A stretch of 64,000 nucleotides of DNA. Source: a virus (taxonomy: Duplodnaviria > Heunggongvirae > Uroviricota > Caudoviricetes). The number at the start of each line of letters is the position of its first letter. Within the stretch, counting starts at the first letter, position 1. Made by a program: the position numbers and the translations under genes. Below are positions 8,186-58,209 of this stretch, piece by piece. Location of the stretch: the IMG/VR virus record IMGVR_UViG_3300045988_150638, one strand, 5' to 3'. A model generated the notes under the pieces. It was not told the DNA's origin. It searched no databases and worked only from the letters and a program-made list of their open reading frames with translations.

Positions 8186-9488
8186 ATGCCAGGCGGGCTA
8201 TGCGTATCTTACAATCATCTAGGTGGATGCGTAGCGCTTCTAAACATGGAGTAAAGTTAGCTGAGAATTTGTCGGACTCACAGGCCAATGCATAAAATTT
8301 TTCAGCCAATTCAAGAGATTCATCCCATATTTTTCGACTTACAAAGTCTGGTAGTGCTGTTTTTCTAAGCTCATTAGATATTGCTCCCCCAGAGCGTGGA
8401 GCAAAACCCATAGGTAACATGTCATAGGCTGGAGCAATATGATATGGGCGTCCGTGGCTACTAATAAACGATAGGTTACCATTATGCATATCGGTATTGC
8501 CTATTAGCAAACCAAAAGACCATAGCCTTGTTGCTATAATAATCGCATCAGGATGGACGCACTTATTTTTTACCAACTCTTTAACCAGCAAGGGCCATGT
8601 TGCTCTTGCATTCCCAACAAATTCTGCATCAAGTGCACGAAGTGAGAATACACCTACCCGACCTAGTTGACCAACACGATCAAATCGGGGAATTTCCAAG
8701 AATCTCTGACCGTTATAATCAAAAACTTCTGTTTCTACCCCCAGAACTTTTAATGCGAGATGTTCAGCAAACAAGAGATCTCTCCAACGCTCACTTATAG
8801 GGGTGTCGTTAGGCGCAGAGAATTTCACTAATACATGTCCACGCTCTGTGAAAGTACAAAATTTGGGTTGTTCACCTCCAGCAGATGAACCGGGCACATC
8901 ACCTTCACCAGCAGCTAAAGCTAATACAGGATATTCACTTTCACGATTAACAGGAACAGGAGGCTGCATCTCTAAAAAATGCGTGCGTGCTTGCTCTCCA
9001 ATTAACAAATTACCAACAACATCATGCCCATGCTTAAGTAAGGCTTTGATCACGTCAGTATCTGACCATTGCTCTGGATTTGAGGGAAGGTTAAGTTCAA
9101 GAGCATATGCTGATGCATATGCTCTTCCAAGGAAGCCTTGTGGACGCATATCAAATAACCACCAAGGTAACCCATCGCTATGCCTGTTATTTTTCCCTTC
9201 CTCAACCATAACATAGCCTTCTGGCCTCACCGGAATGAGAGTACCAAGAACGCAAATACACCCCTCTTCAGTTATACGATAAATGGGGACTGATTCGAAT
9301 CCTCTAAAAGAGTCTCGTAAAGCATATTGAATAGATCTTCCATTTCCGATCCTAACGATTTCATCACCAAGATCTCTTAATGCTCTAGATATCGTTGGTT
9401 GGCTAACACCTAGTCTTTCAACCAATTGTCTTGGTGTCATAGGACCTTGATTGAGCAAATTACGGATTGTTGTTGCATGTATAGCCAT
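8184..9488 (-). CDS. HTH-HipA-like Ser/Thr kinase (YjjJ-like)
   Basis: N-terminal HTH (PRQLVERLGVSQPTISRALRDLG) fused to a HipA-type kinase core (GEQPKF, DMHNGNLSF); ORF extends to 9548 but ATG at 9488 (MAIHATT) preferred; AT-richer than flanks. Confidence 0.55.
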   Translation of the reverse strand: MAIHATTIRNLLNQGPMTPRQLVERLGVSQPTISRALRDLGDEIVRIGNGRSIQYALRDSFRGFESVPIYRITEEGCICVLGTLIPVRPEGYVMVEEGKNNRHSDGLPWWLFDMRPQGFLGRAYASAYALELNLPSNPEQWSDTDVIKALLKHGHDVVGNLLIGEQARTHFLEMQPPVPVNRESEYPVLALAAGEGDVPGSSAGGEQPKFCTFTERGHVLVKFSAPNDTPISERWRDLLFAEHLALKVLGVETEVFDYNGQRFLEIPRFDRVGQLGRVGVFSLRALDAEFVGNARATWPLLVKELVKNKCVHPDAIIIATRLWSFGLLIGNTDMHNGNLSFISSHGRPYHIAPAYDMLPMGFAPRSGGAISNELRKTALPDFVSRKIWDESLELAEKFYALACESDKFSANFTPCLEALRIHLDDCKIRIARLA

Positions 9489-9661
9489 AGTTTTAATTAC
9501 TATTGTGAATAGATTAATGAATAGATTCATGAATGCGTACAATAGCAAGCAAAACGGGAGGTGTCACTAATTTAGGTAAGTTAAAAAGACTTCTTTAAAA
9601 GATGATGACTAGGCGCTTTAACTGCTAGCTGACATAACAATTGGCCATTTGACGTGGAGTT

Positions 9662-9687
9662 CCCCGCCAACTGACGGGGTTTTTATT
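9662..9687 (+). terminator. unidirectional rho-independent terminator (plus strand)
   Basis: CCCCG-8 nt loop-CGGGG followed by TTTTTATT on the plus strand only. Confidence 0.4.
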
Positions 9688-10480
9688 AGTCACTTTCTGT
9701 TTCTTCTGGAATGTTTTCTTGCGGTTCTGTTAATGCAGCACGACACAGGTTCCGGGCATTGGCTATAGCCACACTTTTGACTTCATCCGTCATCGTGCAG
9801 GTAATGTACTGATCGAGTTCTTCAGCACGGATGATGCTTTTGCCAATCAGAAACTGTATTTGCCAGAGCAGATCAGCATCCATAATCAGAATTTCTGCCG
9901 GGCCTTCAGGACCAGCCGGGAAGGAAACATAAGACTGTTTGCCCAGGCCGATAACTCGACAACTTGCTTCAAGAATTGCGCGATTGAGGTCTGACTTTAT
10001 AACGGAAACAGGTTGATTTTCACCTGCGATTACGCCGTTGACATGGATGTGGAATGGCATGTAGCTTGAAATTCGCTCTACTTTCCATACGCCAGCAAGC
10101 GATCCTTCATGCAGCACAATGGGGGTAACCGCGAGTTTCATCTCACCATATAACTGCTGGCAGATAGCTGGATTGCTGAATACATCCAAAGGTTCACACT
10201 CAAACAGCGGCGCAATCTGTATGAGGTCCATCATGGTCATACCAGGGGTACGAGCAGTAATGAATCTGCGCATGCCAGTATCCATTGTGCGCCAGATAGC
10301 TACACCATGCTTTTTGCTCACTTCTTCAGTAAAGCCAAGGTGGCACATGATGGTTTTTTCGATAGCCAGATCAGAGATCGAAACCTTTTCGCCAGGTACA
10401 CCATCATTATTGATGGTCACTTCTACACTCTGGCCATTACGCAGGCGGTATTGAATTGTTTTAGTATTTTGTGCTGTCAT
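9686..10480 (-). CDS. hypothetical protein
   Basis: 264 aa ORF between ssb and the HipA-like gene; no motif recognised by eye. Confidence 0.4.
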   Translation of the reverse strand: MTAQNTKTIQYRLRNGQSVEVTINNDGVPGEKVSISDLAIEKTIMCHLGFTEEVSKKHGVAIWRTMDTGMRRFITARTPGMTMMDLIQIAPLFECEPLDVFSNPAICQQLYGEMKLAVTPIVLHEGSLAGVWKVERISSYMPFHIHVNGVIAGENQPVSVIKSDLNRAILEASCRVIGLGKQSYVSFPAGPEGPAEILIMDADLLWQIQFLIGKSIIRAEELDQYITCTMTDEVKSVAIANARNLCRAALTEPQENIPEETESD

Positions 10481-14881: not shown

Positions 14882-17800
14882 ATGAACAAGCTATCTATGG
14901 GGGTGTTTCGCTGTTCAAGTGTCAGCGAAATATTGAAATACATTAGGGCAATAACATCTCACCGAGCGCCGATTAAATACGGCGTGGAAAAGGTGGAAGG
15001 CAAAAGCTATGACCGACTGCGCCGGGAGGCGAATCAGAAGGCGATAGATTTGCTTAATTCGCTGGTGGACGGCGCGACACTGACAGATGAACAGCGCCAG
15101 ATCCTGGCTGGGTACACCGGTGAAGGCGGCATTGGCGGGTCCGTCTCCGAATATTACACACCAAAGCCGATCGCTGAAGGTGTCTGGGAGATCATGAAGC
15201 TCTACGGCGCGGACGTAGGTAACACTCTGGAACCATCGGCGGGAACCGGCGTTTTTAATGAGACAAAACCGGTTGGTACGGTGATGACCGCGACTGAGAT
15301 CAGCAGTGTTTCCGGTCGTATAAACCAGTTGTTACACCCGGAAGACAGCGTACAGATTTCCCCGTTCGAACAGCTGGCTATAAGCACGCCTAACGATTCA
15401 TTCGACCATGTTGTGGGTAACGTTCCGTTCGGCGGTCGTGATAACACACGCAACATCGATAAGCCTTACGCAGAAGAAACGGACATGGGTTCTTACTTCA
15501 TGCTCCGCATGCTGGACAAGATAAAGCCAGGCGGATTCATGTGCGTGATTGTGCCGCCGTCCATTGTTTCAGGTTCAAACATGAAGCGGTTACGCCTGCG
15601 CTTATCCCGTAAAGCTGAATTTCTTGGCGCTCACCGCTTGCCTACCGGTACTTTTGACGCAAACGGGACCAGTACAGTCGTTGATGTGGTGCTGATGCGC
15701 AAACATCCGGCGGAGATGGCTGAGAAAATCCCCCTGGTGGATGAAGGTACTCTTGAATCGGCAAATGTGCTTTGGCCAACGTTTATTTCTGGCAAGTGGT
15801 TTGAAAAGGACGGCCGCCGGTTTGTTCATGGCACTCAGGAGAAGGGATTCCAGGGGCGTATTGAGGTTCGTGCCGACGGGCAGATTGATAACCAGGCTCT
15901 TAAAGCGAAGCTGATTCATCGTTTCGAAAGTCGTATCGACTGGTCTTTGCTCGATATGGCTGAACCGTCACCGACCGCAGATGTTGTTGATGAAGGGGAA
16001 ATGCGCCTGATTAATGGCGTATGGCAAAAATATGCTGGTGGTCGCTGGATTGAAGCTGATGCCGGGAAGGAGCTGAAGATTGATGTTGCCAGTTATGGCG
16101 CGGATAGCTGGGAGGCTCTTCAGCGTAACCTGACTACCACAGAAGGTCGTCTCGGCATGACATTTACCCAGATGGCAAATGTCCGCGATAAGTACACCAC
16201 ATCAATCAGCGACGATATGGTGCAGTTGGTGGACTGGATTAACAGCCAACCTGAAAAATACCGTGAACGCTTGTATCGCGGAGCGATGATTGGCCGGATG
16301 TTAATTGAATATCAGGACATGAAGGCCGCCGGGCATAGTGCTGAACAAATCGAACAGCAGCGCCTTTCTCTGGTATCCCGTTTGCAGGCAGAGATTGACC
16401 GTTTTGGTAACCCCGGTCGCGGTCCGATAGCGAAATTATCGGGGAGCGGTGCGCGCGCCTGGTTTGCTTTCCGTGGTGCAATTAAGCTGGATGGCACTAT
16501 TTCTGACGAGCTGACAGGAAAGCTGGTTACGCATGATTCCAGCGCCAGTTATGACTCCACCAGCTATCAGGACACCCTGCGTTATCTCTATAGCGATCTT
16601 ACCCGCGATCCAATCCAGCTCGATGATTTCCGCCTTGCGTTTACCGGCGAACTGCCAGCCAGTGATGAAGAGTTGCTTAATTTATTGGCCAGCACCCCTG
16701 GTATTGCGGTTTCACCGTATGGCGGGATTGTTCCGTTCGCCCGCGCCACCAGCGGCGACATTAACGAGATAGTGGCTCCAAAACAGGAATTTCTTGCCAC
16801 ACTCCCCGACGGTCCAGTAAAAAACAACGTCCTTAATCAGCTGGCAGCGATCGAAGAGAAGCGCATCAAGACGCCAGCAGAGAATATCCGCTTTAAGCTC
16901 AATAGCCGTTGGTTCGACCGCTCCGTCATTCTGGAGTTTTTGCAGGAAAACGGCTATCCGGATCTGCGCTATGTGCAGTCAGTGCAGCTGGAAGGCGACG
17001 AAATGGTTTCTGACACCTATCACGGTGGTGATGGTCTGTTCGTCGGGCACCGATACGGTGTCGTCCAGCGCAAGGATAAAGAAACAGGCGAGATCCGCTA
17101 CGAGTGGGACCGTAAATCAGGTGAAAACGCGACCGGGTTCCCGGCACAGCTGGAAAAGTATCTCAATGGTGCGCGTATCGGTGGCAAAGATAGCGCGACG
17201 GCGAACGGCTACCGCGAGCAGATGGCACTGCTTGAGGACCAGTTCAATAAGTGGATCAAGACGCACGATCGCTACGATGAGCTGGTTGCCAAATACAACG
17301 ATGTGTTCAATAGCAATATCCCGTATGAACACTCTGGCGATCCGCTTGGGTTGAAGGGATTAAGCGGTAAGCGCCAGCCATTTGATTACCAGAATAGCGA
17401 GGTGCGCCGACTGTCCGAAGATGGGCGCGGCATCCTGGGCTTTGGCACCGGGCTGGGTAAAACCACGACCGCGCTGGCGCTTGAGGCGTTCAACTATGAG
17501 AACGGTCGCTCTACCCGTACTGCGTATGTAGTGCCTAAATCAGTGCTGGAAAATTGGTATTACGAAGCAAAAGAATTCCTGAGTGAAGAGGCATTCAGTA
17601 ACTACCTGTTCGTCGGTCTTGATGTGCTGATGGATGGCGATCAGATTCGCCAGGTGCCGGTGCTCGATGAGAACGGTAAACCTGTTCTTGGTACTGATGG
17701 CACTCCAGTTATGCGCGATGCTCTTAAGCTGGCAGATGAAGCCACTATCACGGCGCGGATGAACGCGATCCCGCACTCAAATTACCGTGCAGTCGTGTTT

Positions 17801-20800
17801 ACCAAAGAACAATACGCCCGCATTCCGCTACGTGATGACACCGTAGATGAGCATGCACAGGATATGCTTTATGACTTCGTTGCCGCCGGGCGCGTAGCCA
17901 GCGCAATGGATTCCGACTCCCACCGCAAAGAGGCCGCGCGTCGCCGGGTATTGTCGGAGTATTCAGATACCGGTACCGAAAAAGCAGAGAAGTATCCGTA
18001 CTTTGAGGATATGGGCTTCGACAGCGTGATTGCTGACGAAGGCCACAACTACCGCAATTGCTATAAAAATGGTCGCGAAGCGTCACAACTGGCCTATCTG
18101 CCCACCAGCGCGGTGGCGCAATCGGCGCGAGATATGGCAATTAAAAACGCGTACCTGATGAAAAAGAATGGCGGGCGCGGGCCGGTTCTCCTGACTGCAA
18201 CGCCAGTCGTTAACACCCCGATCGATGCATACAACATGCTTTCTCATGTTCTGCCGAAGGAATACTGGCAGAACATGGGGATCTACGGTCCTGATGACTT
18301 CGTTAAATTCTTCGGCAAGACCAGGCTGGAAACGGTACAGAAAATCAGCGGTGAAGTTGAAGAAAAAATGGCGCTGGTGGGCTTTGAAAACCTTGATGCG
18401 CTGCGCGGTATATTCCATCGCTGGGTAACGCTTAAAACGGCGGAAGACGTTAAGGATACCGTGGAGATCCCGGAGCTGGACGAACACCAGCAGGATGCAC
18501 CACTTACTGAAGAACAACTGGCGGCGTATGAAGAATTGCGTCAGCAGGCGGAAGCGGCGGCAAAAGCCAACAATGGCGTAACGACCTCGGTCAATGAAGA
18601 CGGCGTGATTGAGCACGAGAAAGCCCGTCCGATCTTCTCAATAATCAGGGATATGGACCGCGTATGTACTGACATGGACCTGTACTATCGCCGGATCACC
18701 TATCGTTTCCTGCCGGAGTATGCCGATGCGGTGCAGCAGCTGGCGGACAGTTTGCCTAAACAAGCCACCAGCGAAGACGACGACAGTGATGATTCAATCA
18801 CGCAGCAATCGCAATACTCCCTGATAGATAAGGGCGAGTTTATTCAGTTGCAGGTTCCGGAAGCGTTCGAGCAGGAAGTGAATAAGCGCCTGGCCAGGTT
18901 TGGCATTGACGAACTGACCGTAACTCACCCCGTTACGCCGAAATACGCGAAGCTGATCGCCACGCTGAAGGAGTTTTTCCCGGAAGGTAAGCAAATCATC
19001 TTCACCGATGAAAAAACGCAGCACCAGAAGCTCAAGCGCATTATCTGCAATGCTCTAAACCTTGAACCTTCAAAGGTGGGGATCCTGAATGCTCAGACGG
19101 TTGCCGAGGCAGGTAAAACCGGTAAGAAACTGAAAGCGGTTAAACCGCCGAAAGAGCTACCGGATGAACCAACAGATGCACAGATAGCGAAATACAACGA
19201 GCAAATGGCTCTGTATGACGCCTATATCGCGCAGCAAAATGAAATGTCGCTGGGCGGGCTGGAAAAGATTGCTGCCGACTTCCAGGAGGGACGGACTCCG
19301 ATCATCATCTGCAACAAAAAGGCAGAGGTGGGTATCAACCTGCATCGAGGAACGACTGACATCCATCATCTGACGTTGCCATGGACACCAGCCAGTATCG
19401 CACAGCGTAACGGTCGCGGTGCCCGAGTTGGTTCCAACCGTGCAAGCGTTCGCGTTCACTACTACTGCGGCAAGGGGTCTTTCGATGAATACCGACTGAA
19501 GACGCTGAAGCGTAAAGCAGGCTGGATCTCCGATATCCTCCGTTCAGATAAGTCAGAAATGGAGAACGCAGACGCCAATGACATGATCGAAATGCAGATG
19601 TATACCGCGAAGGATGACGGCGAACGTCTGGCAATGATGCAGGTTCAAATGGATAAGGCGAAAGCTGCGAAACGCGCTCGCCAGAAAGAACAGGCTACTA
19701 TCGACCTTCAGAACTACATCAAGGCGCAGCACGCAGCTGGCGAGGATGTTGAGGTACTTACCGCTGAATTAGAACGAAGCAAAGCGGAACTTGAAAAGAC
19801 CACCGCCGAGGTAGCTAAATTCAAACAGGCGGCAATGGCCAAGGCAGCGGATAACGCAGACTGGAAGGCCCGCTGGGGGAGTGTCCATCACACAGACCGT
19901 ATGTTGTTAGCACAGTATCGCGCGTCGTTGAAAAGTGCCATTCAGCGCAAGGCTAATATCTCTCAGGCCATCTCCCGCTATGAGAAATTATTGAACCGTA
20001 CTCATAAGGCCGCGACGGATATCAAACGCCTGCGCCCGCTGGTGGAGGATGCAATAAATAAAGGCATTCTGGATGTTGATCCTGATCTGGTTAACCATGC
20101 GAATGAGTTCCTCGTTATCGGCGATCGCTCATGGCGTGTAGGCCAATACTACGATTGTGCCGGTGATATCGTTCGCATTAAGTCGCTGGACTTCGACAGC
20201 CAGCGCGCAGACGTGGAGATCATCTTTACCTTCAAAGGCACCAAATCGGGTAACTGGGATGTGAAGACGCTGGATAAACAGGTTGATGTAACTCCCGATG
20301 AAGATGCTGTTATGCAGAAAATCAGTGGTGGCGTCTCCATCGCCGGGATTAACGACATCATTTCCTGTGACGATTTCTACCGTTTCCAGCAGCGCGGCAT
20401 GATCAAAATCACTGACTCATACGGCGTTCAGACTACAGAGTCAGGCTATAGCATTGATTTTGTTGGTTCCTATACGGCCCCACTGAAGCATGCGGTTTAC
20501 CCGGATCGCCGTGACGGCGCGCTGAAGTCGTCAATTGCAAAATGGGTGCTTGGTATGATGTCGGAAGGGAATAACCGCCAGATCCGTTCGGCAGAAACAT
20601 TCCTGGTTGAATTGTTTGGCTCCAATTATGGCGATGTAATCGCGTCATACGGAGATACGCTATCCCCTGAAGCAATTCAGGAGAAAATAGCGGATGCGAT
20701 CGCAAAAATGCCGGAGAAAACAAGCCAGGGGGCTACTCGTAACGGGGATTCTGAACTTGAAGTCACCAATGCCATTTTCGGAACCCATGAGTTCCGGGCG

Positions 20801-21649
20801 TCAGATTATGAGATCACCACAGCACAGTTTGGCACCATTGGCATTTACAGCAATAAAGCCGAGATCAAGCAGGCAATGGACTCAGCAAGCGCGCGCATCG
20901 CAGCAGAACGGGAAGCCAATCTGAATCATGCAGTCGCCGCACTGACTCAATCGTGGGTAACAGCAATCAGGGAGGCCGCTACCACAGGGAAAATCACACC
21001 TGCAATTGCGGATGTCGTAAACGACGGCTCTAAATTTATGGATGCCTATCAAATGGATGCGGTGCAGTTGCCATCAGCCTATGGCCAACTCAGCTATCGC
21101 ATGACCTACAACCTGGTATCAATGTTTTCCGACCTTGCCATCCTTGGGCTGGTGGACCTTAACGAGGTTACGCCGGAATTGCTCAGCATGCGCAAGAATC
21201 ATGTGGAGATATTGCAGAGAATTAACACGGTTCTTGCCGGGCGCACCGATGAAGAGAAACAGGCCGACGCTGATCGGATAAACCTGGCCCTTGGCAACAT
21301 CACGGAGGAAGAAATTGCCGCCAGAAACGAGAAACAAGAAGAGTTATCATCAATACAGGGTGATGCCACCAGCATAGCTCAGTCTCTTGGTCTGAATTAT
21401 CGCGTATCCACCGCCGACCTGAAGATGATGTACGCACCAAAATTCGCCGCTGGCGAGGTATTTGGGCTTCAGGAAGCCTCAGGCATGAAAGGCGTTCTTT
21501 TCCGTGCGAAAGACGCAATCAAGGCGAAATTCGGCGCTCGCTGGCTGCCAGCGAAGGCGAAGAACAGCGATTTCCCGGGTAACTGGTGGATTATCGAGAC
21601 AAAACACAACGTGGCGGACGTTCTGGCCGTCATCCAACAATACGCATAA
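14882..21649 (+). CDS. darB: DarB anti-restriction protein (N6-adenine methyltransferase-helicase fusion)
   Basis: 2255 aa, matching recalled size of P1 DarB; methyltransferase-like VGNVPFGG, Walker A GTGLGKTT and DEGHN helicase motifs. Confidence 0.85.
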   Translation: MNKLSMGVFRCSSVSEILKYIRAITSHRAPIKYGVEKVEGKSYDRLRREANQKAIDLLNSLVDGATLTDEQRQILAGYTGEGGIGGSVSEYYTPKPIAEGVWEIMKLYGADVGNTLEPSAGTGVFNETKPVGTVMTATEISSVSGRINQLLHPEDSVQISPFEQLAISTPNDSFDHVVGNVPFGGRDNTRNIDKPYAEETDMGSYFMLRMLDKIKPGGFMCVIVPPSIVSGSNMKRLRLRLSRKAEFLGAHRLPTGTFDANGTSTVVDVVLMRKHPAEMAEKIPLVDEGTLESANVLWPTFISGKWFEKDGRRFVHGTQEKGFQGRIEVRADGQIDNQALKAKLIHRFESRIDWSLLDMAEPSPTADVVDEGEMRLINGVWQKYAGGRWIEADAGKELKIDVASYGADSWEALQRNLTTTEGRLGMTFTQMANVRDKYTTSISDDMVQLVDWINSQPEKYRERLYRGAMIGRMLIEYQDMKAAGHSAEQIEQQRLSLVSRLQAEIDRFGNPGRGPIAKLSGSGARAWFAFRGAIKLDGTISDELTGKLVTHDSSASYDSTSYQDTLRYLYSDLTRDPIQLDDFRLAFTGELPASDEELLNLLASTPGIAVSPYGGIVPFARATSGDINEIVAPKQEFLATLPDGPVKNNVLNQLAAIEEKRIKTPAENIRFKLNSRWFDRSVILEFLQENGYPDLRYVQSVQLEGDEMVSDTYHGGDGLFVGHRYGVVQRKDKETGEIRYEWDRKSGENATGFPAQLEKYLNGARIGGKDSATANGYREQMALLEDQFNKWIKTHDRYDELVAKYNDVFNSNIPYEHSGDPLGLKGLSGKRQPFDYQNSEVRRLSEDGRGILGFGTGLGKTTTALALEAFNYENGRSTRTAYVVPKSVLENWYYEAKEFLSEEAFSNYLFVGLDVLMDGDQIRQVPVLDENGKPVLGTDGTPVMRDALKLADEATITARMNAIPHSNYRAVVFTKEQYARIPLRDDTVDEHAQDMLYDFVAAGRVASAMDSDSHRKEAARRRVLSEYSDTGTEKAEKYPYFEDMGFDSVIADEGHNYRNCYKNGREASQLAYLPTSAVAQSARDMAIKNAYLMKKNGGRGPVLLTATPVVNTPIDAYNMLSHVLPKEYWQNMGIYGPDDFVKFFGKTRLETVQKISGEVEEKMALVGFENLDALRGIFHRWVTLKTAEDVKDTVEIPELDEHQQDAPLTEEQLAAYEELRQQAEAAAKANNGVTTSVNEDGVIEHEKARPIFSIIRDMDRVCTDMDLYYRRITYRFLPEYADAVQQLADSLPKQATSEDDDSDDSITQQSQYSLIDKGEFIQLQVPEAFEQEVNKRLARFGIDELTVTHPVTPKYAKLIATLKEFFPEGKQIIFTDEKTQHQKLKRIICNALNLEPSKVGILNAQTVAEAGKTGKKLKAVKPPKELPDEPTDAQIAKYNEQMALYDAYIAQQNEMSLGGLEKIAADFQEGRTPIIICNKKAEVGINLHRGTTDIHHLTLPWTPASIAQRNGRGARVGSNRASVRVHYYCGKGSFDEYRLKTLKRKAGWISDILRSDKSEMENADANDMIEMQMYTAKDDGERLAMMQVQMDKAKAAKRARQKEQATIDLQNYIKAQHAAGEDVEVLTAELERSKAELEKTTAEVAKFKQAAMAKAADNADWKARWGSVHHTDRMLLAQYRASLKSAIQRKANISQAISRYEKLLNRTHKAATDIKRLRPLVEDAINKGILDVDPDLVNHANEFLVIGDRSWRVGQYYDCAGDIVRIKSLDFDSQRADVEIIFTFKGTKSGNWDVKTLDKQVDVTPDEDAVMQKISGGVSIAGINDIISCDDFYRFQQRGMIKITDSYGVQTTESGYSIDFVGSYTAPLKHAVYPDRRDGALKSSIAKWVLGMMSEGNNRQIRSAETFLVELFGSNYGDVIASYGDTLSPEAIQEKIADAIAKMPEKTSQGATRNGDSELEVTNAIFGTHEFRASDYEITTAQFGTIGIYSNKAEIKQAMDSASARIAAEREANLNHAVAALTQSWVTAIREAATTGKITPAIADVVNDGSKFMDAYQMDAVQLPSAYGQLSYRMTYNLVSMFSDLAILGLVDLNEVTPELLSMRKNHVEILQRINTVLAGRTDEEKQADADRINLALGNITEEEIAARNEKQEELSSIQGDATSIAQSLGLNYRVSTADLKMMYAPKFAAGEVFGLQEASGMKGVLFRAKDAIKAKFGARWLPAKAKNSDFPGNWWIIETKHNVADVLAVIQQYA

Positions 21650-21682: not shown

Positions 21683-22123
21683 ATGGCCACACTATCTGAT
21701 ACAATAAAACCGAATAAAACATATCTTGAGGCGGTACTCCGTACAGCGTTGTTAGGAAAGACAGAAGACGAATACGTTGATTTCTTCCTGTCAGGGCTAC
21801 GCGGGCGATTACTGAAAAATCCCCGCCTGTACCGCAGCTATGGTCCATACTGGCCGGAAATTAAAAAATTATTACTGGAGCGCGGTTATGGTAATTTCGG
21901 TCGTCTCGTTGACCGTGACGTTCGCAAAATTTACCGTTATGACCGCCCGGCGCTGACGCTCATAGCTGCGACGCTCTACAGCCAGGAGCGTTTTGATAAT
22001 GGTCAGATATACTCAGCCTGGCATTTACTGCCAGTGCCTGAAGAGGTTGACGACCAGGACTATGAGTTTGAGTCTTACGATTTGGAAGTTGAAGCCTTAG
22101 CACAGGCTGGAGAGAAAACTTGA
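21683..22123 (+). CDS. ulx: Ulx (upstream of lxc)
   Basis: 146 aa; position between darB and lxc as recalled for P1. Confidence 0.4.
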   Translation: MATLSDTIKPNKTYLEAVLRTALLGKTEDEYVDFFLSGLRGRLLKNPRLYRSYGPYWPEIKKLLLERGYGNFGRLVDRDVRKIYRYDRPALTLIAATLYSQERFDNGQIYSAWHLLPVPEEVDDQDYEFESYDLEVEALAQAGEKT

Positions 22124-22368
22124 AAAAGCGATACTACACAGTAAAGCATGGGACGCTACGAGCATTACAAGAGTTTGCTGATAAGCATAACGTTGAGGTG
22201 CGCAGGGAAGGGGGAAGTAAAGCTCTGCGCATGTACCGTCCGGACGGGAAATGGCGTACGGTCGTCGATTTCAAAACTAACAGTGTTCCCCAGGGCGTCC
22301 GCGACCGGGCATTCGAAGAATGGGAGCAAATCATCATAGATAATGCATTGCTCCTGAATGCTGATTAA
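22120..22368 (+). CDS. lxc: Lxc/Bof co-repressor (modulator of C1 binding)
   Basis: 82 aa, matching recalled size of P1 Bof/Lxc; start overlaps ulx stop. Confidence 0.45.
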   Translation: MKKRYYTVKHGTLRALQEFADKHNVEVRREGGSKALRMYRPDGKWRTVVDFKTNSVPQGVRDRAFEEWEQIIIDNALLLNAD

Positions 22369-22376
22369 GTTTGTCT

Positions 22377-22396
22377 AGCCCGGTTAATACCGGGCT
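22377..22396. terminator. bidirectional stem-loop terminator
   Basis: perfect hairpin AGCCCGG-ttaata-CCGGGCT between convergent lxc and the hotspot cassette. Confidence 0.5.
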
Positions 22397-22426
22397 GGTT
22401 TAGACATCTTAAGTGGGTGTTAATTT

Positions 22427-22936
22427 TTAATTATGGTTAATCATATCTAACAGTATTTTTAGCTTCCTGCATGTGTTATCAATATCTTTACATAATATGA
22501 CATCAAGGATGTTTGGTAGTCCTAATACCATATGAGAAATGAAACCCTCGCCAACTTGTAGATTATGGGTAGTCTCATCTGGATTCACGTATTCAATGGT
22601 TTTAGTTTTATTTATCCCATAATCTTTATAACAGATGATTACAGGAATGTTCTTCTGTTCAGCAATCTGCAACTCTATTCCTAGCCCTGTTGATGGAAAA
22701 CTACATTCTGCAATTATTACATCAGATTTCTCAACCATATCTCTGTCCCAAATGTAACAAAGTCTAGATTTGTTACTTTCAGGGCGCTTTGATAATTCTG
22801 GGTCACTATTTATCAAAGCATATTTTACGTTGTTATTTTGAGATAGACCTTTTGCAAGGCTGTGAATCCAATTACTGTACTCATGGAAAATTTCCCTTGG
22901 AACATGAGTTAAAGCGCATGCGATATATATATTCAT
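22427..22936 (-). CDS. nucleoside 2-deoxyribosyltransferase-like (NDT/DNPH1-fold) protein, hotspot cassette gene B
   Basis: 169 aa; N-terminal strand IYIACAL and DVIIAECSFPSTGLGIELQIAEQKNIPVI, which mirrors the NDT catalytic-Glu motif (GLGMELGYALSQGKYVL); ATG overlaps the stop of the upstream gene (TAATG); AT-rich. Confidence 0.6.
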   Translation of the reverse strand: MNIYIACALTHVPREIFHEYSNWIHSLAKGLSQNNNVKYALINSDPELSKRPESNKSRLCYIWDRDMVEKSDVIIAECSFPSTGLGIELQIAEQKNIPVIICYKDYGINKTKTIEYVNPDETTHNLQVGEGFISHMVLGLPNILDVILCKDIDNTCRKLKILLDMINHN

Positions 22937-23976
22937 TAAGAAGCAGACCTTACGTTTGGGATAAGAAATTGGTGTCCAGTAATTTCAGATGAAATTGCAT
23001 CTATAAACTGTGACGGAGATTGTTGAATAAATTCAGCAATAATCCAGTTTTCTTTTTCATTTAGTAACTGTCTTAGCTTAAGTGGGTCATACCGACATAG
23101 CTCACTTAATCGATGCATAGCTGCTAGGGTTATAACCAATGGCGATATTGAAACAGAAGTATGCTCAGATTGATTGTTTTTACGTTTGAGATACCAAAGA
23201 GTCTCTGCGCCATTGATATAGTAAAGATTTCTTCTTATTTTTTGATGAAATTCAGTTAATTGCGGCATGTTGGATGATTGATTTTCATTATAATCAAGTA
23301 ATGATTCTACTGATTTTATTTTGTACTTTTCTCTTTCAAACAATTCGAACGCTGGCGGTAGAATGTCGAAAACTGTGTCGAACCGAAAATCCTTGGATAA
23401 AATCGCAGTGAAAAACAGGCTATTGTCTGACTCATTCAAAACGAACTCAGCATCGATCAGTGGAATAAATATATCATCAGTTACATCATAAGTAAGGCAA
23501 TATGTACGATGAATGTATGGCAATCCAGAAAAAAGGTTTTTTATATTGTACACCCCCTCATGAGAGGTGCCGTCAATATATTTTGAAAAAGACGGAAGTA
23601 TACCCTCATTTTTTATTTTTACTTTTATATCAGATAAGTTATCAATTTGGGCTGCATTTTCACCCCTAGCAACACCATGATGCTGTTTGAAGTTTATATT
23701 GCGAGATGAAAGTAACGCCTTTACTGCATTCATGAATGAATAATAGTGCAAAAGTGGGGCTGATTGGTTGGGTAAACCATTGGCCGCCTGATTAAATACT
23801 TTTGCTTGCTCCCAATAAAAAAGAGCCTCATCTTTTTCGTTTCGCTTTAACCAGAGTTCGACAAAATCCCAATGACTGTATGTAAGTACATTCCTTGCGG
23901 TTAGGTCAGGGTTTAATGATGCTTTATGAGGCTTCATGACCTTGTTCCTAATTTTCAGCGGCTTAATATTCATCAT
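22936..23976 (-). CDS. hypothetical protein, hotspot cassette gene A (possibly YaaC-like)
   Basis: 346 aa; GGAGGA SD 8 nt upstream; AT-rich; LLHYYSFMNAVKALL segment resembles the YaaC-family signature from memory; no catalytic motif recognised. Confidence 0.5.
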   Translation of the reverse strand: MMNIKPLKIRNKVMKPHKASLNPDLTARNVLTYSHWDFVELWLKRNEKDEALFYWEQAKVFNQAANGLPNQSAPLLHYYSFMNAVKALLSSRNINFKQHHGVARGENAAQIDNLSDIKVKIKNEGILPSFSKYIDGTSHEGVYNIKNLFSGLPYIHRTYCLTYDVTDDIFIPLIDAEFVLNESDNSLFFTAILSKDFRFDTVFDILPPAFELFEREKYKIKSVESLLDYNENQSSNMPQLTEFHQKIRRNLYYINGAETLWYLKRKNNQSEHTSVSISPLVITLAAMHRLSELCRYDPLKLRQLLNEKENWIIAEFIQQSPSQFIDAISSEITGHQFLIPNVRSAS

Positions 23977-24005
23977 TGTAATAATCCTCCACCCAAAGTT
24001 ACTAG

Positions 24006-24034
24006 ATTGTAAAATATATATTTTTGTTCCACAA
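24006..24034 (-). promoter_or_regulatory. sigma70-like promoter of the hotspot cassette
   Basis: minus strand TTGTGG -35 and TACAAT -10 separated by 17 bp, about 30 nt upstream of the gene A start. Confidence 0.4.
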
Positions 24035-24066
24035 CAAAAATCTCTATTGGCTACTGACGTAATTAA

Positions 24067-24708
24067 TTATAAATAGTTTTCTTTGCCGGTAAGTAAGCCT
24101 TGAGGAACTCGCTTGTCGGCTAGACATTGGGTTCCGCGAATTATGTTAATCAGAGGGCTTAGTAACGATGTTTCCTGGCGGGCCTCAACTTCTCCAGCCA
24201 TTGCCCTGATGTAGTCGGCGCTTGCAACGTTGTTATATTCCGTTGCGAAGCAGCATAACAACGACAGAACGTGCTCTGTCGTTATTTCGCTCCAGTTGAT
24301 GTTGAAAAATTCATCGCCTTTTTTGTCGTGTTCGGAATCGAAGATGCTTTGGTGGAGGATGTATTTGCCGGATTCTTTGCGCGGTAACTTGATCGCTTTC
24401 TGGCGTTCCAGCTCCTTGTAAATCTGCATTGCTTCAATTAGTACCGGCCTGCCGTTCATGAAGGGATCGCGCAACCTTACACGCTGGCCAACTCGACCCG
24501 TAATAAAGCTGTTTTCCTCTTCCACCAGCACGATAAAACCCTTTTCCTCTTTTTCTCGCAATTCGCGCAGCAGCTGGAGTTCCATATCGCGGCGGCGTTC
24601 AGGGTAGCTGGTCCGCTCAGCCATTATCAACTCGTTGTTGATCCATGCAGCAGTCATTGACGCCGGTTTACCGACGCTCATCGAAACAACGCATATTTTC
24701 TTATCCAT
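24067..24708 (-). CDS. mat: Mat
   Basis: ORF to 24855; ATG at 24708 preferred (AGGGGG SD); position between ref and the res-mod slot as in P1. Confidence 0.45.
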   Translation of the reverse strand: MDKKICVVSMSVGKPASMTAAWINNELIMAERTSYPERRRDMELQLLRELREKEEKGFIVLVEEENSFITGRVGQRVRLRDPFMNGRPVLIEAMQIYKELERQKAIKLPRKESGKYILHQSIFDSEHDKKGDEFFNINWSEITTEHVLSLLCCFATEYNNVASADYIRAMAGEVEARQETSLLSPLINIIRGTQCLADKRVPQGLLTGKENYL

Positions 24709-24897
24709 AGCGCCCCCTATAAAAAAGAAAAGCCACCAGCGGCGGCTTAGCAATACAACTGAAGGTAGCGCCCGGTACTCAGACTGTGCCGTCCATGGAA
24801 TATTTGAAAAGGGATCCATCCGTACCGGGCATGTGATGATTCTGACTGAAGTCACTTGTAAGTTGTCAATTATTTCAGATTAAAAATAATATATTTA

Positions 24898-26066: not shown

Positions 26067-27098
26067 CTAATCGCCATCTTCCAGCAGGCGCACCATTGCC
26101 CCTGTTTCACTATCCAGGTTACGGATATAGTTCATGACAATATTTACGTTGGTCCAGCCACCAGCTTGCATGATCTCCGGTATTGAAACTCCGGCGCGGG
26201 CCATATCTCGCGCGGCACCGACACGGGCACTGTGTCCAGACCAGGCCAGGTACCTCTGGCCAGAGTCATCCTTAGCTCCGTAAATCAATCGGTGGGTTGC
26301 TTCAAAAATCCCTTCCAGGGCGCGAGTTGATAGCTGGCTGGTGGATGATGGCGAGGCAACACCATTTTTTCTGACGCGGCAAAACAGGTAGTTATTCGGA
26401 TCATCAGCTACACCAGAGACAGAAATCCATCGCTCGACCAGTTTAGTTACCCCCAGGCTAAGTGCCTTCTCTACACCAGCGGTGCTAACCAGCGTTTTCG
26501 TTCTGCCAATATGGATTAACATTCTCCCACCGTCAGTACGTGAGATATCTTTAACCCTGATCCTGGCAATTTCGGCTATACGTAACAGGGTGTTATAAGC
26601 AATCCCCAGAAATGCCAGATTACGTATATCCTGGCAGCGATCACTATTTTCCATGAGTGAACGAACCAGGTCGAAATCAGTGCGTTCGAACGCCAGCGCC
26701 TGTTTTGCACGCTCACCGGCATCAACGTTTTCTTTTCGGATCCGTCGCATGACCAGTGAAACAGCATTGCAGTCACTAGGTCGTGGCAGCCCGGACCGAC
26801 GATGAAGCATGTTTAGCTGGCCCAAATGTTGCTGGATAGTTTTTACTGCCAGACCGCGCGCCTGAAGATATAGAAGATAATCGCGAACATCTTCAGGTTC
26901 TGCGGGAAACCATTTCCGGTTATTCAACTTGCACCATGCCGCCCATGACCGGCAAACGGACAGAAGCATTTTCCAGGTATGCTCAGAAAACGCCTGGCGA
27001 TCCCTGAACATGTCCATCAGGTTCTTGCGAACCTCATCACTCGTTGCATCGACCGGTAATGCAGGCAAATTTTGGTGTACGGTCAGTAAATTGGACAT
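26067..27098 (-). CDS. cre: Cre site-specific tyrosine recombinase
   Basis: 343 aa; essentially identical to P1 Cre (MSNLLTVHQNLPALPVDATSDEVRKNLMDMFRDRQAF...MVRLLEDGD); loxP lies about 420 bp upstream. Confidence 0.97.
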   Translation of the reverse strand: MSNLLTVHQNLPALPVDATSDEVRKNLMDMFRDRQAFSEHTWKMLLSVCRSWAAWCKLNNRKWFPAEPEDVRDYLLYLQARGLAVKTIQQHLGQLNMLHRRSGLPRPSDCNAVSLVMRRIRKENVDAGERAKQALAFERTDFDLVRSLMENSDRCQDIRNLAFLGIAYNTLLRIAEIARIRVKDISRTDGGRMLIHIGRTKTLVSTAGVEKALSLGVTKLVERWISVSGVADDPNNYLFCRVRKNGVASPSSTSQLSTRALEGIFEATHRLIYGAKDDSGQRYLAWSGHSARVGAARDMARAGVSIPEIMQAGGWTNVNIVMNYIRNLDSETGAMVRLLEDGD

Positions 27099-27327: not shown

Positions 27328-27515
27328 TTTTCACCTCTGATTGATTGGTGGTGCTAAGTGCGCTACGCGAAATCTGGAGCACTAACACTGCCAACATTTC
27401 GCAGATTTTACGTAGCGCAACCTTGATCAAATGATCAAGTGATCACTATTTGACCTGTAAGGTATTGAACTGTATGGATTTACAGGTAAATTGATCATGT
27501 TCAATAACCCTTAAG

Positions 27516-27549
27516 ATAACTTCGTATAATGTATGCTATACGAAGTTAT
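27516..27549. other. loxP recombination site
   Basis: exact ATAACTTCGTATA-ATGTATGC-TATACGAAGTTAT; GATC sites nearby. Confidence 0.98.
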
Positions 27550-27592
27550 TAGGTCTGAAGAGGAGTTTACGTCCAGCTGCGCATAAAAATCA

Positions 27593-27609
27593 AGAATTAT
27601 TAGAGCAAT
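27593..27609 (-). promoter_or_regulatory. C1 operator (immC Op99 cluster)
   Basis: minus strand ATTGCTCTAATAATTCT. Confidence 0.65.
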
Positions 27610-27669
27610 AAATTTTGAGAGAAAAATCCCACTCCACCAGCCAAAAACTGGATTGTTTTTCATAGTTGT

Positions 27670-27698
27670 TTGACAATTGCTCTAATAAATTATAGTTT
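27670..27698 (+). promoter_or_regulatory. promoter overlapped by a C1 operator (coi-c1 autoregulation)
   Basis: TTGACA followed directly by ATTGCTCTAATAAATTA (operator at 27676-27692) and a TATAGT-like -10. Confidence 0.65.
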
Positions 27699-27930
27699 TG
27701 CCGCCGTTTCGTAATACGACTTTGGATTCACTATTTAATGTGTCTTCAGCGTTGTAGAGCGGCTCAGAAGGAAATGAGCAAACAGGGAAACCTTATACAA
27801 CGGCATTACAGCTATGCATTGCTCATCTTACACACAGCGCAATGTTGTTAGATTACCCCAGCATGGATCATGGGTGAAACAGTAGGTCAGAGCTTCAGGC
27901 TCTGTGTTGTCAATACAGTGAGGCATAATT

Positions 27931-34872: not shown

Positions 34873-35145
34873 TTATTTTTTTGGTGCATCCTCGTTCTGA
34901 TACACCGGATCGCTCCCTTTTGGCAACCGGAGGCTTAACTGCCGATAGTGCCGTAACCGTTCCATGAAATAGGTGCGCAGATTCTCTGGTTGCTCGCGGG
35001 CTACCTGTTCAGCTATGACAGGTATGTTCAATCGCTCTTTGTACGCCACACCGCTGGCAGCCAGATCAACGTTAACCTTATCCCGTTCTTCCTGACTTTT
35101 AGCTGCAATATTCCAATCGTGCATATCAAATCCCATCCAGAACAA
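34873..35145 (-). CDS. hot: Hot (homolog of DNA pol III theta)
   Basis: similar to E. coli HolE across [36 protein letters not shown]; true start probably an internal Met. Confidence 0.7.
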
Positions 35146-35573
35146 TTGCGTAACGACTATTATTTAACCAGCAAAGTAACTTTTAATTTTTTTTCTTTTC
35201 CCATTGATTTTTGTGCACAGCTTATCTGCCTTGCCGTGCGCAGAATCAACTTTTTTCTTCCTGATTTATCCACAAAGTTATGCACTTGCAAGAGGGCCAT
35301 TTTCTAAATATTGTGATGTTTCACAAATGAAATGAATTTTGATTAATGAAGATAAGGAGAAAATTTGAGATGCAATCATGACGTTAATAGATAGGGTCTG
35401 CATTACAGACCCCATCCGCATCAAGGAATTAGCCGTTCCCTGATGTTGTTCCGAAAACATGTGCCGTAAGCTCACGTTAACGACTTTCTTTCACCGAATC
35501 CAACTATATAGGGGTTGGGTTTCTACGTCAACGTGAGCAAGTGCTCCTTTACATTTGACAAGGAACCACCTTA

Positions 35574-35711
35574 ATGACTGCTTTTTTTCAGTTCCTGAGT
35601 GCATTTTTAGATGCGCCTGTTATTAGCCAGATTCTGGCGATCATCCTCATCATCGTTTTGATTTTGCTTTTAAGGTCAGTAAAAAATGGAATTATGCACT
35701 GGCTTACTTAA
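35574..35711 (+). CDS. small hydrophobic peptide (45 aa)
   Basis: MTAFFQFLSAFLDAPVISQILAIILIIVLILLLRSVKNGIMHWLT; single TM segment; weak SD. Confidence 0.25.
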   Translation: MTAFFQFLSAFLDAPVISQILAIILIIVLILLLRSVKNGIMHWLT

Positions 35712-35785
35712 TGTTCAGTGAAACATTAAAATCTCCTTGATGTGGAAACAATCATTTTCTGTATGTGCTGGTGGGTACCTGTAGT

Positions 35786-36148
35786 TCAGCTTTCGTTGGC
35801 ATTTAACTTCGTCTTTGCTTTCTCCACCAGCAACTTCCAGATGCCTATTTCATTAGCAGCCGCCTTGATGGCGGCATAAAAAGCATCTTGCTGATCGTAA
35901 CGCTGAATCTGTTTTTTCAGTTTTGCCTCCACCAATTTAATTTCATTACGTGCTTTCTGAAGCCGCAGCGCCGCCCGGTTACGTCTGTTCTTGTATAGCG
36001 CGTTAATCTCTGATAATTGCTTTAATTTACCAGCCTGACTGCGGATTATCGCCTCTCTGACTTCTGCCGTGCGTCTCATCTGATCTCTTAAGAGTTCACC
36101 GTTTTCGATAATTCTTTCAAGGTGTTTGATGTGATCTGCAACTCTCAT
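35786..36148 (-). CDS. hypothetical coiled-coil protein
   Basis: 120 aa; last gene of a long minus-strand early operon. Confidence 0.4.
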   Translation of the reverse strand: MRVADHIKHLERIIENGELLRDQMRRTAEVREAIIRSQAGKLKQLSEINALYKNRRNRAALRLQKARNEIKLVEAKLKKQIQRYDQQDAFYAAIKAAANEIGIWKLLVEKAKTKLNANES

Positions 36149-37077
36149 ACTTCACCCTCGCTTGTATCGCCAGCATCCACCAGCGGCAATAAAGCCCTGG
36201 CCATCTTATGAACCAATAGTGCATCAATAATGCCAAGCGTATGCCCCGGCTTAATGTTTAATGCCGCCTCAAGGTGACACCTTTCCAGGCCACTTTTCTC
36301 GGCTTGTTTATGATGATCTGGTGTAATAACGTCGCCCAAAACACGGCTAATTCTTTCTCGTAATTGCTGGGTGCCAGCACACTTGATCGCTGTATCGTGG
36401 AGACGGTTAACCAGTTCGCGATAAACATGCGGCTTAATTCGGATACGTTCACCGGTGACGCCCTTTCCTGGTGCTGGCACCGAACTATCCGGAATGTCCG
36501 GATAGTTGCCAGCCTCGTAAGCTACCCGCAGCCAGTGCATGAATGTTTCAGTGGACACACAACCACAGTCCACATCGATTTTCCCGCGTTGCTGTTCCAG
36601 CCATTGCCCAAAATCCAACCTGTAAGTCTTACTTTCAAGTTCATCACCATTGAACTCGACTTTCTGCGACGCTATGAGAGCTGATTCGTATTGTTCGCGA
36701 GTGACAACTGACTGGTATTCATCGCTATCAAGGTCACCAATTGGAAGCTCAATCTCACAACAAAAATTGCGCCCAAAGAAAGTGTCTTTTTTGTGGTCTG
36801 AGCCAAAAGCAAAAGTCGCGCATGGTGCCATTAAATTGACACTGGGTAGGTAACAATAACTCATTCCATCAGGCCACCCGCCGCACTTAGGCAGCTCCTT
36901 CACTAACAAGTCGATAAGCTTCATTTTTTTATCATCTTTGCAAGCCGCCAAAGCCATTTGGGCAAGTGCCAATACTTCATCTGCCGTATATCCAGCACCG
37001 TGACCATACATTTCGATACGGGAAATAATCTCTGATATACGCTCTTCAGTGATTCTGGTCATTTCTTTTTGCGCCAT
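36145..37077 (-). CDS. hypothetical protein
   Basis: 310 aa; overlapping start/stop with neighbours. Confidence 0.4.
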   Translation of the reverse strand: MAQKEMTRITEERISEIISRIEMYGHGAGYTADEVLALAQMALAACKDDKKMKLIDLLVKELPKCGGWPDGMSYCYLPSVNLMAPCATFAFGSDHKKDTFFGRNFCCEIELPIGDLDSDEYQSVVTREQYESALIASQKVEFNGDELESKTYRLDFGQWLEQQRGKIDVDCGCVSTETFMHWLRVAYEAGNYPDIPDSSVPAPGKGVTGERIRIKPHVYRELVNRLHDTAIKCAGTQQLRERISRVLGDVITPDHHKQAEKSGLERCHLEAALNIKPGHTLGIIDALLVHKMARALLPLVDAGDTSEGEV

Positions 37078-37433
37078 TTCTTTTCACATTCCTTAGTCCA
37101 TTTTTCAATGTTCATTTTGGCAATATCAGTCATTCCATCACCTAAGAAATACTTTCTCCGGTACGTCTTGCACTTAAACCACACTACAACAGCCACCAGC
37201 CAGAAAATAAAAGGCCATACAGCAATACCAACTCCAGCCGCGATAAAGCCCAATAGCCATAAATGAAGCTCTCCAACTTCTGTTTGCGGCAATATTCTTA
37301 AAGAATTAAGCAGCAGACTGAAGGAATAGTCGTATGCATTGGCGGTATAAGACATGCAATCCATATAATTAAAGTCATAGCCTGCGGCTGCCGCCCATAA
37401 TGGGCGGTCAAGAAAATGTTTTAGTGTCATCAT
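37059..37433 (-). CDS. hypothetical membrane protein
   Basis: 124 aa with hydrophobic segments. Confidence 0.35.
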   Translation of the reverse strand: MMTLKHFLDRPLWAAAAGYDFNYMDCMSYTANAYDYSFSLLLNSLRILPQTEVGELHLWLLGFIAAGVGIAVWPFIFWLVAVVVWFKCKTYRRKYFLGDGMTDIAKMNIEKWTKECEKKWRKKK

Positions 37434-37439
37434 ATAAAT

Positions 37440-37829
37440 TTAAGGTTCAGACCAGTTATCTTCAATAGCAATGCTTAATCTTTGTAGCCATTCTGCTAAT
37501 TTCAGCATTGCTTCTCTTTCGCTTAAACCACGCGGGAAATCATCAAGCGCAATTGTTGGCTTGAAGTTCCCAAAATTATCCATTTCAACGGTCAGATTTT
37601 GCTCCAGCACGGTATTCCTTACGCGGCTATTGTGCCGAAGCAAATATACTGAACGTGATTTATTGGTTTTGTGGTCGAGCTGATATTCGGTAAGTATCAT
37701 CTGGCTTTTGCCATGACTATTACCTCTCCACATACCTACCTCACTTAATAAAACAACTCCATGCGTAGTTGATGATTTTTCCCCACGTAATATAAATCTG
37801 CACTCCGGCAGTAAAACCAAAGCCAACAA
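37440..37829 (-). CDS. hypothetical protein
   Basis: 129 aa ORF in operon context. Confidence 0.35.
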   Translation of the reverse strand: MLALVLLPECRFILRGEKSSTTHGVVLLSEVGMWRGNSHGKSQMILTEYQLDHKTNKSRSVYLLRHNSRVRNTVLEQNLTVEMDNFGNFKPTIALDDFPRGLSEREAMLKLAEWLQRLSIAIEDNWSEP

Positions 37830-37911
37830 TTGCTGAAAAAATCAAAGCATTTACTTTTGACATTATAAATTTTCTCTCGGCGTCGTAGGTGATAGCACCA
37901 TAATTGATAAT

Positions 37912-38163
37912 TTAGTGAGTTAGCAGTTCCATTTTTTGGATGATTTCCGCATGAGCATCATCGTTATCAACACTTAAATCGTTTAATGCCTTTCGCACTA
38001 CATCAACTTCTTCTGGTTGGAAGAAGTCATCTCGGTAGTCACCAAATAGAACCGAAACAAGCCTGCCACCAGCAACATCAAGATTGGCGCTAACAGGTGG
38101 CTCTTTGCCATCCTCAAATTCGACTACAAAAGTTATTTTTCCCATCGTTACCACCAGCGACAA
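37912..38163 (-). CDS. hypothetical protein
   Basis: 83 aa ORF in operon context. Confidence 0.3.
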   Translation of the reverse strand: MSLVVTMGKITFVVEFEDGKEPPVSANLDVAGGRLVSVLFGDYRDDFFQPEEVDVVRKALNDLSVDNDDAHAEIIQKMELLTH

Positions 38164-56701: not shown

Positions 56702-56704
56702 GGC

Positions 56705-58207: not shown

Positions 58208-58209
58208 AT

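Follow-up and report, generated by a model that had tools for sequence, protein, structure and literature searches.

A YaaC-family gene coupled to a predicted DNPH1-type nucleotide N-glycosidase in the lxc-mat cargo site of a P1-type phage-plasmid

The window analyzed here, a single stretch of 64,000 nt, is a P1-type phage-plasmid. Plasmid and phage annotations place Ulx and then Lxc after darB, and Ref is also encoded in the window. A 343-residue protein encoded on the minus strand at 26067–27098 is presumably Cre; its annotation in related records is Cre or tyrosine recombinase. The features needed to describe the locus are the following.

14882–21649, plus strand: DarB, 2255 residues.
22120–22368, plus strand: Lxc, with its stop codon ending at 22368.
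22388–24053, no strand: low-GC cargo segment, lying as an insertion between the stop codons of lxc and mat.
22427–22936, minus strand: gene B, a 169-residue protein of the NDT/DNPH1 fold and predicted nucleotide N-glycosidase (ORF, profiles, AlphaFold2, and Foldseek).
22936–23976, minus strand: gene A, a 346-residue YaaC-family protein matching PF14175, a helical bundle of the HEPN fold into which a further domain is inserted.
24067–24708, minus strand: Mat, with the coordinates annotated in related plasmids and its stop at 24067.
56626–58285: three tRNA genes (CAT-anticodon "Met," Thr-TGT, and Asn-GTT), as expected for P1-type phages.

A mechanically assigned open reading frame for mat runs from 24067 to 24855 and uses a GTG start 147 nt upstream of the annotated one.

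The segment between lxc and mat is ~1.7 kb long and has a GC content of ~34–36%, compared with ~50% in the flanks. Homology to the backbone of P1 and Salmonella phage SJ46 stops at 22368–22387 and picks up again at 24054–24067. Because the backbone breaks off and resumes around it in this way, 22388–24053 represents foreign cargo, with two genes, A and B, both on the minus strand. Gene A is preceded by GGAGG, and its TAA stop shares one base with the ATG start of gene B (TAATG), an overlap that implies translational coupling of the two genes; the end coordinate of the gene B reading frame takes in its stop codon. No direct or inverted repeats flank the cargo boundaries, and a promoter and terminator scan returned fewer promoter-like sites than shuffled sequence did. 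The mat stop and the start of YaaC are 90 nt apart, and an AT-rich inverted repeat within this gap at 24013–24048 (16-nt arms, 88% complementary, 4-nt loop) may act as a terminator or operator. Directly 3′ of the lxc stop, at 22378–22398, is a GC-rich hairpin, AGCCCGG ttaata CCGGGCT, which spans the end of the SJ46 backbone homology; it was not among the hits of the terminator scan.

The same interval is occupied by other genes in relatives. In P1 we take it, from the established gene order, to contain the EcoP1I res and mod genes, and one P1 record is described as "del res del mod." In SJ46 the site carries a single gene of the RelA/SpoT family (9107–10228 in locus L061), which is evidently CapRelSJ46. 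The EcoP1I genes, CapRel, and the cassette described here share exactly the same site, but the proteins and mechanisms are unrelated, so that the likeness is positional only. The single RelA/SpoT-family gene at the SJ46 site indicates that lxc-mat behaves as an exchangeable slot for defense cargo in P1-type genomes. CapRelSJ46 is a toxin-antitoxin fusion with experimentally established anti-phage activity (PMC9712102).

By sequence, gene B matches Pfam PF05014 (Nuc_deoxyrib_tr) over residues 4–106 and profile positions 2–100 of 117, with an E-value of 1.8e-4 and a score of 22.1 bits that lies below the gathering score of 28.8. Precomputed PF05014 matches are present for about 45 of 120 listed homologues. 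A profile of 43 homologues compared with PDB sequences gave its best matches to Rcl/DNPH1 (E 7e-5), and hhalign aligned gene B to human DNPH1 with 94.9% probability (E 4.8e-8). The numbering of the human DNPH1 sequence used for this alignment matches the mutant names Y24F, D80A, and D80N in PDB titles. The AlphaFold2 model (pLDDT 96.1, pTM 0.89) is a single domain of 169 residues with a flavodoxin-like α/β fold of NDT topology. When this model was compared with the PDB by Foldseek, the matches were DNPH1 (many entries), the NDT-like Enterococcus faecalis structure 7m5h, the CMP N-glycosidase BcmB, and a cyanobacterial NDT, with a best E-value of 4.5e-6, probability 1.0, and target-normalized TM values of 0.7–0.79; these four groups make up almost all of the top 25. 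DNPH1/Rcl, a 2′-deoxynucleoside 5′-phosphate N-hydrolase also described as a 5-hydroxymethyl-dUMP N-hydrolase, is the best match of gene B in both profile and fold.

Because sequence profiles, profile-profile comparison, and structure search agree, gene B is a real relative of NDT and DNPH1, and its place in this superfamily, with a similarity beyond chance, is confirmed at the level of sequence and predicted structure. The initial annotation had read the segment around the putative nucleophile as an NDT/DNPH1-type active site, and had assigned the N-terminal IYIACAL strand (residues 3–9) to the same flavodoxin/Rossmann-like fold. The profiles and the fold prediction bear out both assignments, and with DNPH1, BcmB, and NDT at the top of the Foldseek results an unrelated family is not indicated. 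The LOG and SLOG folds, which it had also brought into consideration, do not fit. The motif of gene B is PSTGLGIE and not PGGxGTxxE, its Pro-to-Glu spacing is that of DNPH1, and the Foldseek top 50 contains no LOG or SLOG structure.

The residues and segments of the putative active site map to the minus strand as follows.

22550–22615: family-specific 22-residue insertion (residues 108–129), a gap relative to DNPH1 in the global hhalign alignment.
22637–22723: catalytic segment DVIIAECSFPSTGLGIELQIAEQKNIPVI (residues 72–100), comprising a strand, the PSTG loop with Ser-82, and the helix with Glu-88.
22673–22675: Glu-88 codon, read directly from the sequence.
22745–22747: Asp-64 codon, the counterpart of DNPH1 Asp-80 and NDT Asp-72.
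22925–22927: Tyr-4 codon in strand β1, the counterpart of DNPH1 Tyr-24 and NDT Tyr-7, at lower alignment confidence.

The catalytic segment DVIIAECSFPSTGLGIELQIAEQKNIPVI was aligned to ADVVVAEVTQPSLGVGYELGRA of DNPH1, both with the 43-homologue profile against the PDB and by hhalign, and in the model it forms a strand at residues 73–77 and a helix at residues 83–94. Glu-88 aligns to the nucleophile (DNPH1 Glu-104, NDT Glu-98), and Ser-82 aligns to DNPH1 Ser-98 and NDT Asp-92. Tyr-4 and Ser-134 pair with DNPH1 Tyr-24 and Ser-128 in the global hhalign alignment at low local confidence, the latter within ISHMVLG compared with LSAMIRG. Asp-64, Glu-88, and Ser/Thr-134 are conserved in 43/43 homologues, and Tyr-4 and Ser-82 in 42/43 each. 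From the alignments these five residues probably line one pocket. They correspond to the Tyr, Asp, Ser, Glu, Ser set of DNPH1, with the same PSxGxGxE spacing, although the overall identity is only 14–18%.

Enzymes of the superfamily break the N-glycosidic bond by way of a covalent glycosyl-enzyme intermediate, and those of the DNPH1 type are homodimers whose active site is composite. In DNPH1, two serines bind the 5′-phosphate. In NDT, Asp-92 contacts the free 5′-OH, and a serine in place of this aspartate separates the nucleotide hydrolases from the nucleoside transferases. The conserved aspartate (NDT Asp-72, DNPH1 Asp-80) binds the 3′-OH of the sugar, and a tyrosine rather than a phenylalanine in strand β1 accompanies 2′-deoxy substrates. 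With Ser-82 at the position of NDT Asp-92, gene B is nearer to DNPH1, a nucleotide N-glycosidase, than to a classical NDT. Together, Ser-82 and Ser/Thr-134 suggest that the substrate is a nucleotide, not a nucleoside, and that the reaction is hydrolysis and not base exchange, and Tyr-4 suggests a preference for deoxy substrates. The DNPH1-type set of a tyrosine, an aspartate, a glutamate nucleophile, and two Ser/Thr residues thus makes gene B most likely an N-glycosidase acting on (deoxy)nucleoside 5′-monophosphates or a closely related phosphorylated nucleotide.

Gene B is clearly closer to DNPH1/Rcl and the CMP N-glycosidases than to the classical Lactobacillus NDT. The resemblance to the latter proposed in the initial annotation holds in part. 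The two proteins belong to one superfamily, and Glu-98 and Asp-72 of NDT align to Glu-88 and Asp-64 as proposed, but DNPH1 is the closer relative and Ser-82 stands where NDT has Asp-92. The hhalign comparison with Lactobacillus leichmannii NDT gave an E-value of 0.0017 and a probability of only 15%, and a classical NDT catalyzing base exchange is unlikely. MilB and BcmB, the N-glycosidases of CMP and hydroxymethyl-CMP, share the fold of gene B (BcmB 4jen, Foldseek E 2.2e-5). They also act on nucleotide monophosphates, but unlike gene B they are found in biosynthesis clusters for nucleoside antibiotics. MilB and BcmB reportedly have a phenylalanine where DNPH1 has the tyrosine, and this residue is said to set the preference for ribo or deoxy substrates.

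Gene B also departs from DNPH1 in several respects. The GSIRGG phosphate loop that follows strand β1 in DNPH1 is not kept, and in its place is a conserved ALTHVPR, in which Thr-10, His-11, Pro-13, and Arg-14 each recur in 41 or more of the 43 sequences. The 22-residue insertion, situated before the second serine and adjoining the active site, contains two strands in the model (residues 115–117 and 123–125). Within it, Tyr-116, Leu-126, Gln-127, and Gly-129 are invariant, as is Gly-131 just past it, and the Ser/Thr-134-x-Met-136 motif follows. Unlike DNPH1, gene B comes from bacteria, is mobile, and is coupled to YaaC in an operon, and its activity is a predicted one.

The gene A product matches PF14175 above threshold and over nearly the whole profile (positions 18–307 of 307, E 1.4e-45, 156.5 bits). 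Its model (pLDDT 91) contains the four-helix bundle of HEPN proteins, split by an inserted α/β domain at about residues 100–275. Neither Foldseek nor a sequence profile gave a significant PDB match, and the HEPN fold of YaaC is nearest to AF0298/UPF0332 and the MNT-HEPN toxin group. The canonical HEPN motif Rx4–6H has no counterpart in YaaC. The corresponding position reads His-288–Arg-289–x5–Arg-295–Tyr-296, with no histidine after the arginine. His-288, Ser-291, Arg-295, and Tyr-296 are invariant, and at least 90% of sequences have Arg-289. This cluster lies at the helix end that bears Rx4–6H in HEPN proteins. A survey of HEPN proteins describes similar motif variants in AbiV and AF0298 (PMC3710099). 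More divergent YaaC genes (34–37% identity) occur in the IMG/VR phage contigs L071–L076, which lack a gene B homologue. In one of these (L071), the gene that follows YaaC may be AbiTii-like.

Homologues of gene B are found in Alpha-, Beta-, and Gammaproteobacteria, Bacteroidota, Planctomycetota, Cyanobacteria, Nitrospirota, Acidobacteriota, Armatimonadota, Campylobacterota, and Myxococcota. The subfamily is small, with 34 representatives at E ≤ 1e-30 among 1.84 billion proteins. A YaaC gene lies directly upstream of gene B in 122 of the 132 sampled loci, namely 48/52 genome loci from more than eight phyla and 74/80 metagenome loci. In five further loci (three genome, two metagenome), the place of YaaC is taken by a dCTP deaminase-like (Dcd-like) protein, and the same arrangement was found separately in a Vibrio cholerae superintegron cassette. 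Wherever the upstream sequence was long enough, gene B was never seen without an upstream partner, and its pairing with a partner is obligate. Locus L055 contains only a truncated gene B match, from residue 35, and no YaaC match.

The Dcd-like partner is about 330 residues long and matches PF22769 (E about 1e-26). As read from its sequence, it has the Dcd-like motif PGW.G..PLE and a hydrophobic C-terminal tail, and it has no PADLOC match. The gene that follows it is clearly a member of the gene B family (hhalign E 4e-53 for the Vibrio copy). The loci with this arrangement, all with PF22769 and one of them the Vibrio cassette, are the following.

L014: 5009–6004.
L027: 4946–6004.
L057: 5046–5996.
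L091.
L121.
L165: 4001–5002.

Some relatives of the Dcd-like partner stand alone. One, in L167 (4001–6425), is followed by overlapping genes for GTP cyclohydrolase II and a HAD hydrolase and is adjoined by a type IIG restriction-modification (R-M) gene; this set is a candidate multi-enzyme nucleotide-depletion module. In L168 (2117–7886), a Dcd-like gene separates hsdM from hsdS in a type I R-M operon, and after it come a gene of the PLD family and one for a UvrD-like helicase.

The exact cassette is carried by 77 PLSDB plasmids and by 106 of 5,426 complete Escherichia coli genomes, nearly always on P1-like plasmids of 60–105 kb, and by four P1-like contigs in IMG/VR. INPHARED contains the flanks only and no copy of the cassette. 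In other genomes, the neighbors observed, as raw occurrences, are type I R-M genes (at least four loci), Gabija GajA/GajB, Hachiman HamB, AriA-like ATPases, PbeA, MADS proteins, Abi_2, PycTM, and prophage repressor regions.

The analysis establishes the fold, the conservation of the catalytic positions, the obligate pairing, the hotspot position, and the defense-gene neighborhoods, and from these we infer an enzymatic activity, its substrate, the assignment of sensor and killer, and an anti-phage phenotype. The reading that we favor, and hold to be fairly probable, is that gene B is an N-glycosidase and the nucleotide-degrading effector of a mobile two-gene anti-phage module with the HEPN-fold YaaC. 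The suggestion in the initial annotation that the effector acts by nucleotide depletion or through a nucleotide signal is a plausible one that agrees with the genomic context. In the proposed mechanism, the partner protein would transmit an infection signal and license gene B, which would hydrolyze the N-glycosidic bond of (deoxy)nucleoside monophosphates. Loss of nucleotide precursors would starve phage DNA synthesis, and the lysogen would be protected against other phages. Where the partner is Dcd-like, the two proteins could constitute a two-step sink for deoxycytidine nucleotides. Several findings count against this reading: the sub-threshold PF05014 score, the loss of the GSIRGG loop, the family-specific insertion next to the active site, the low-confidence global alignment behind the Tyr-4 and Ser-134 equivalences, and the lack of a match to PADLOC, PHROGs, or NCBIfam models, which applies to gene A as well in the sense that neither protein gave a meaningful match.

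Enzymes of the NDT fold have precedents as defense effectors. [quoted passage not shown] The effector of Ec86 (Eco1) and RcaT of retron Sen2 are, as gene B may be, toxic NDT-fold components of anti-phage systems, but the retron effector depends on msDNA and a reverse transcriptase, and a second lobe of it binds DNA. Gene B does not fit a type II-A retron, as its neighbors are YaaC, lxc, and mat, with no reverse transcriptase nearby and no PADLOC match. The PADLOC models cover retron effectors, and the Rfam matches in the window are to tRNAs only, with no msr/msd RNA. ThsI has a domain of the same enzyme family as gene B together with a TPR region and is activated by cADPR from a TIR protein, whereas the partner of gene B is YaaC and the locus has no TIR gene. 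A type VIII Thoeris system is likewise rejected, as there is no TIR-domain ThsB and gene B is a single domain of 169 residues without a TPR region.

The pair also recalls the HEPN-MNT toxin-antitoxin systems, in which a HEPN-fold protein similarly stands beside a nucleotide-handling enzyme with overlapping genes, and in which MNT AMPylates the HEPN toxin. YaaC differs from the HEPN proteins of these systems in being three times larger, in its inserted domain, and in lacking the Rx4–6H histidine, and its partner is of an N-glycosidase fold where theirs is a nucleotidyltransferase. The strongest of the rival explanations is one that we regard as possible but unlikely. YaaC would be the real effector, for instance a HEPN RNase or an Abi protein, and gene B an accessory that tunes YaaC by synthesizing or removing a nucleotide ligand, or else covalently modifies the HEPN site as MNT does. 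The nearness of the YaaC fold to AF0298/UPF0332 and the MNT-HEPN toxins and the invariant cluster at the Rx4–6H helix end are in its favor, and the divergent YaaC genes in phages that lack gene B indicate that YaaC rather than gene B could be the primary effector. Against it stand the missing canonical histidine and the partner exchange. Because the gene B family works with two unrelated partners, of which the non-HEPN, Dcd-like one is a nucleotide enzyme, its target is most probably free nucleotides and not YaaC.

A second rival, which we consider quite unlikely, is that the pair is not a defense system but a metabolic or counter-defense moron, serving, for example, the phage-plasmid in nucleotide salvage or sanitation or degrading a signaling nucleotide of host immunity. 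DNPH1, MilB, and BcmB function in metabolism or biosynthesis, and phage hotspots also carry anti-defense genes. However, the pair is found mostly in the chromosomes of unrelated bacteria beside R-M, Gabija, Hachiman, and Abi genes and not within operons of nucleotide metabolism, it sits at the EcoP1I and CapRel site, and its sporadic spread across phyla fits a horizontally moving defense cargo. It is very improbable that gene B is a non-catalytic nucleotide-binding sensor on the NDT fold, comparable with the SLOG domain of ThsA. Related Rossmann-like folds do act as ligand sensors in Thoeris (PMC11204291), but the near-complete conservation of the catalytic set, including the glutamate nucleophile and the aspartate, is that of active enzymes, and gene B has no attached output domain. 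A chance motif match on an unrelated fold, to which only the sub-threshold single-sequence Pfam score would speak, is effectively refuted by the convergence of profile, profile-profile, and structure searches on DNPH1/NDT.

Within the favored two-gene module, a narrower version is conceivable by analogy, although we regard it as doubtful. Gene B may selectively hydrolyze those deoxypyrimidine monophosphates whose levels rise sharply when a phage with modified DNA infects the cell, and YaaC would sense the infection. Candidate substrates are dCMP and hm-dCMP in the case of T-even phages, or hm-dUMP; human DNPH1 hydrolyzes 5-hydroxymethyl-dUMP. Such a defense would be specific for precursors and possibly non-abortive, and the Dcd-like partner would feed the sink from dCTP to dUTP/dUMP and on to uracil and deoxyribose 5-phosphate. 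If this were true, bacteria would use against phages a DNPH1-type hydrolase activity that is known from animals.

In UniRef this exact protein is already named "Nucleoside 2-deoxyribosyltransferase" (PGAP: hypothetical), so the family assignment of gene B is not new. What appears to be undescribed is a DNPH1-type subfamily with the insertion, obligately paired with YaaC or a Dcd-like protein and located at a proven defense slot. PADLOC-DB 2.0.0 has no models for the gene B subfamily. In the library that was searched there was no paper on the pair of YaaC and gene B, and nothing specific on hotspots of P1-like phage-plasmids or on integron dCTP deaminase cassettes. The DNPH1-like active site provides a direct biochemical hypothesis for gene B. 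If the pair defends, a compact two-gene system of 1.55 kb joins the nucleotide-pool defenses, the widespread and uncharacterized YaaC family gains a first functional handle, and P1-type phage-plasmids have a general slot for defense cargo at the EcoP1I/CapRel site. Its presence in 106 of 5,426 complete E. coli genomes means that the cassette could affect phage susceptibility in clinical and livestock strains.

Two further observations were made. A set of proteins of 250–565 residues (P0319–P0341) has an N-terminal gene B-like domain with THVPK, PSTGTGQELERA, and GGxSxMxxGNP, and no Pfam domain was found in their long C-terminal extensions. Elsewhere in the window, patches of low GC content at 27400–27700 (34%) and 35000–38000 (39–41%) may be further cargo of the phage-plasmid.
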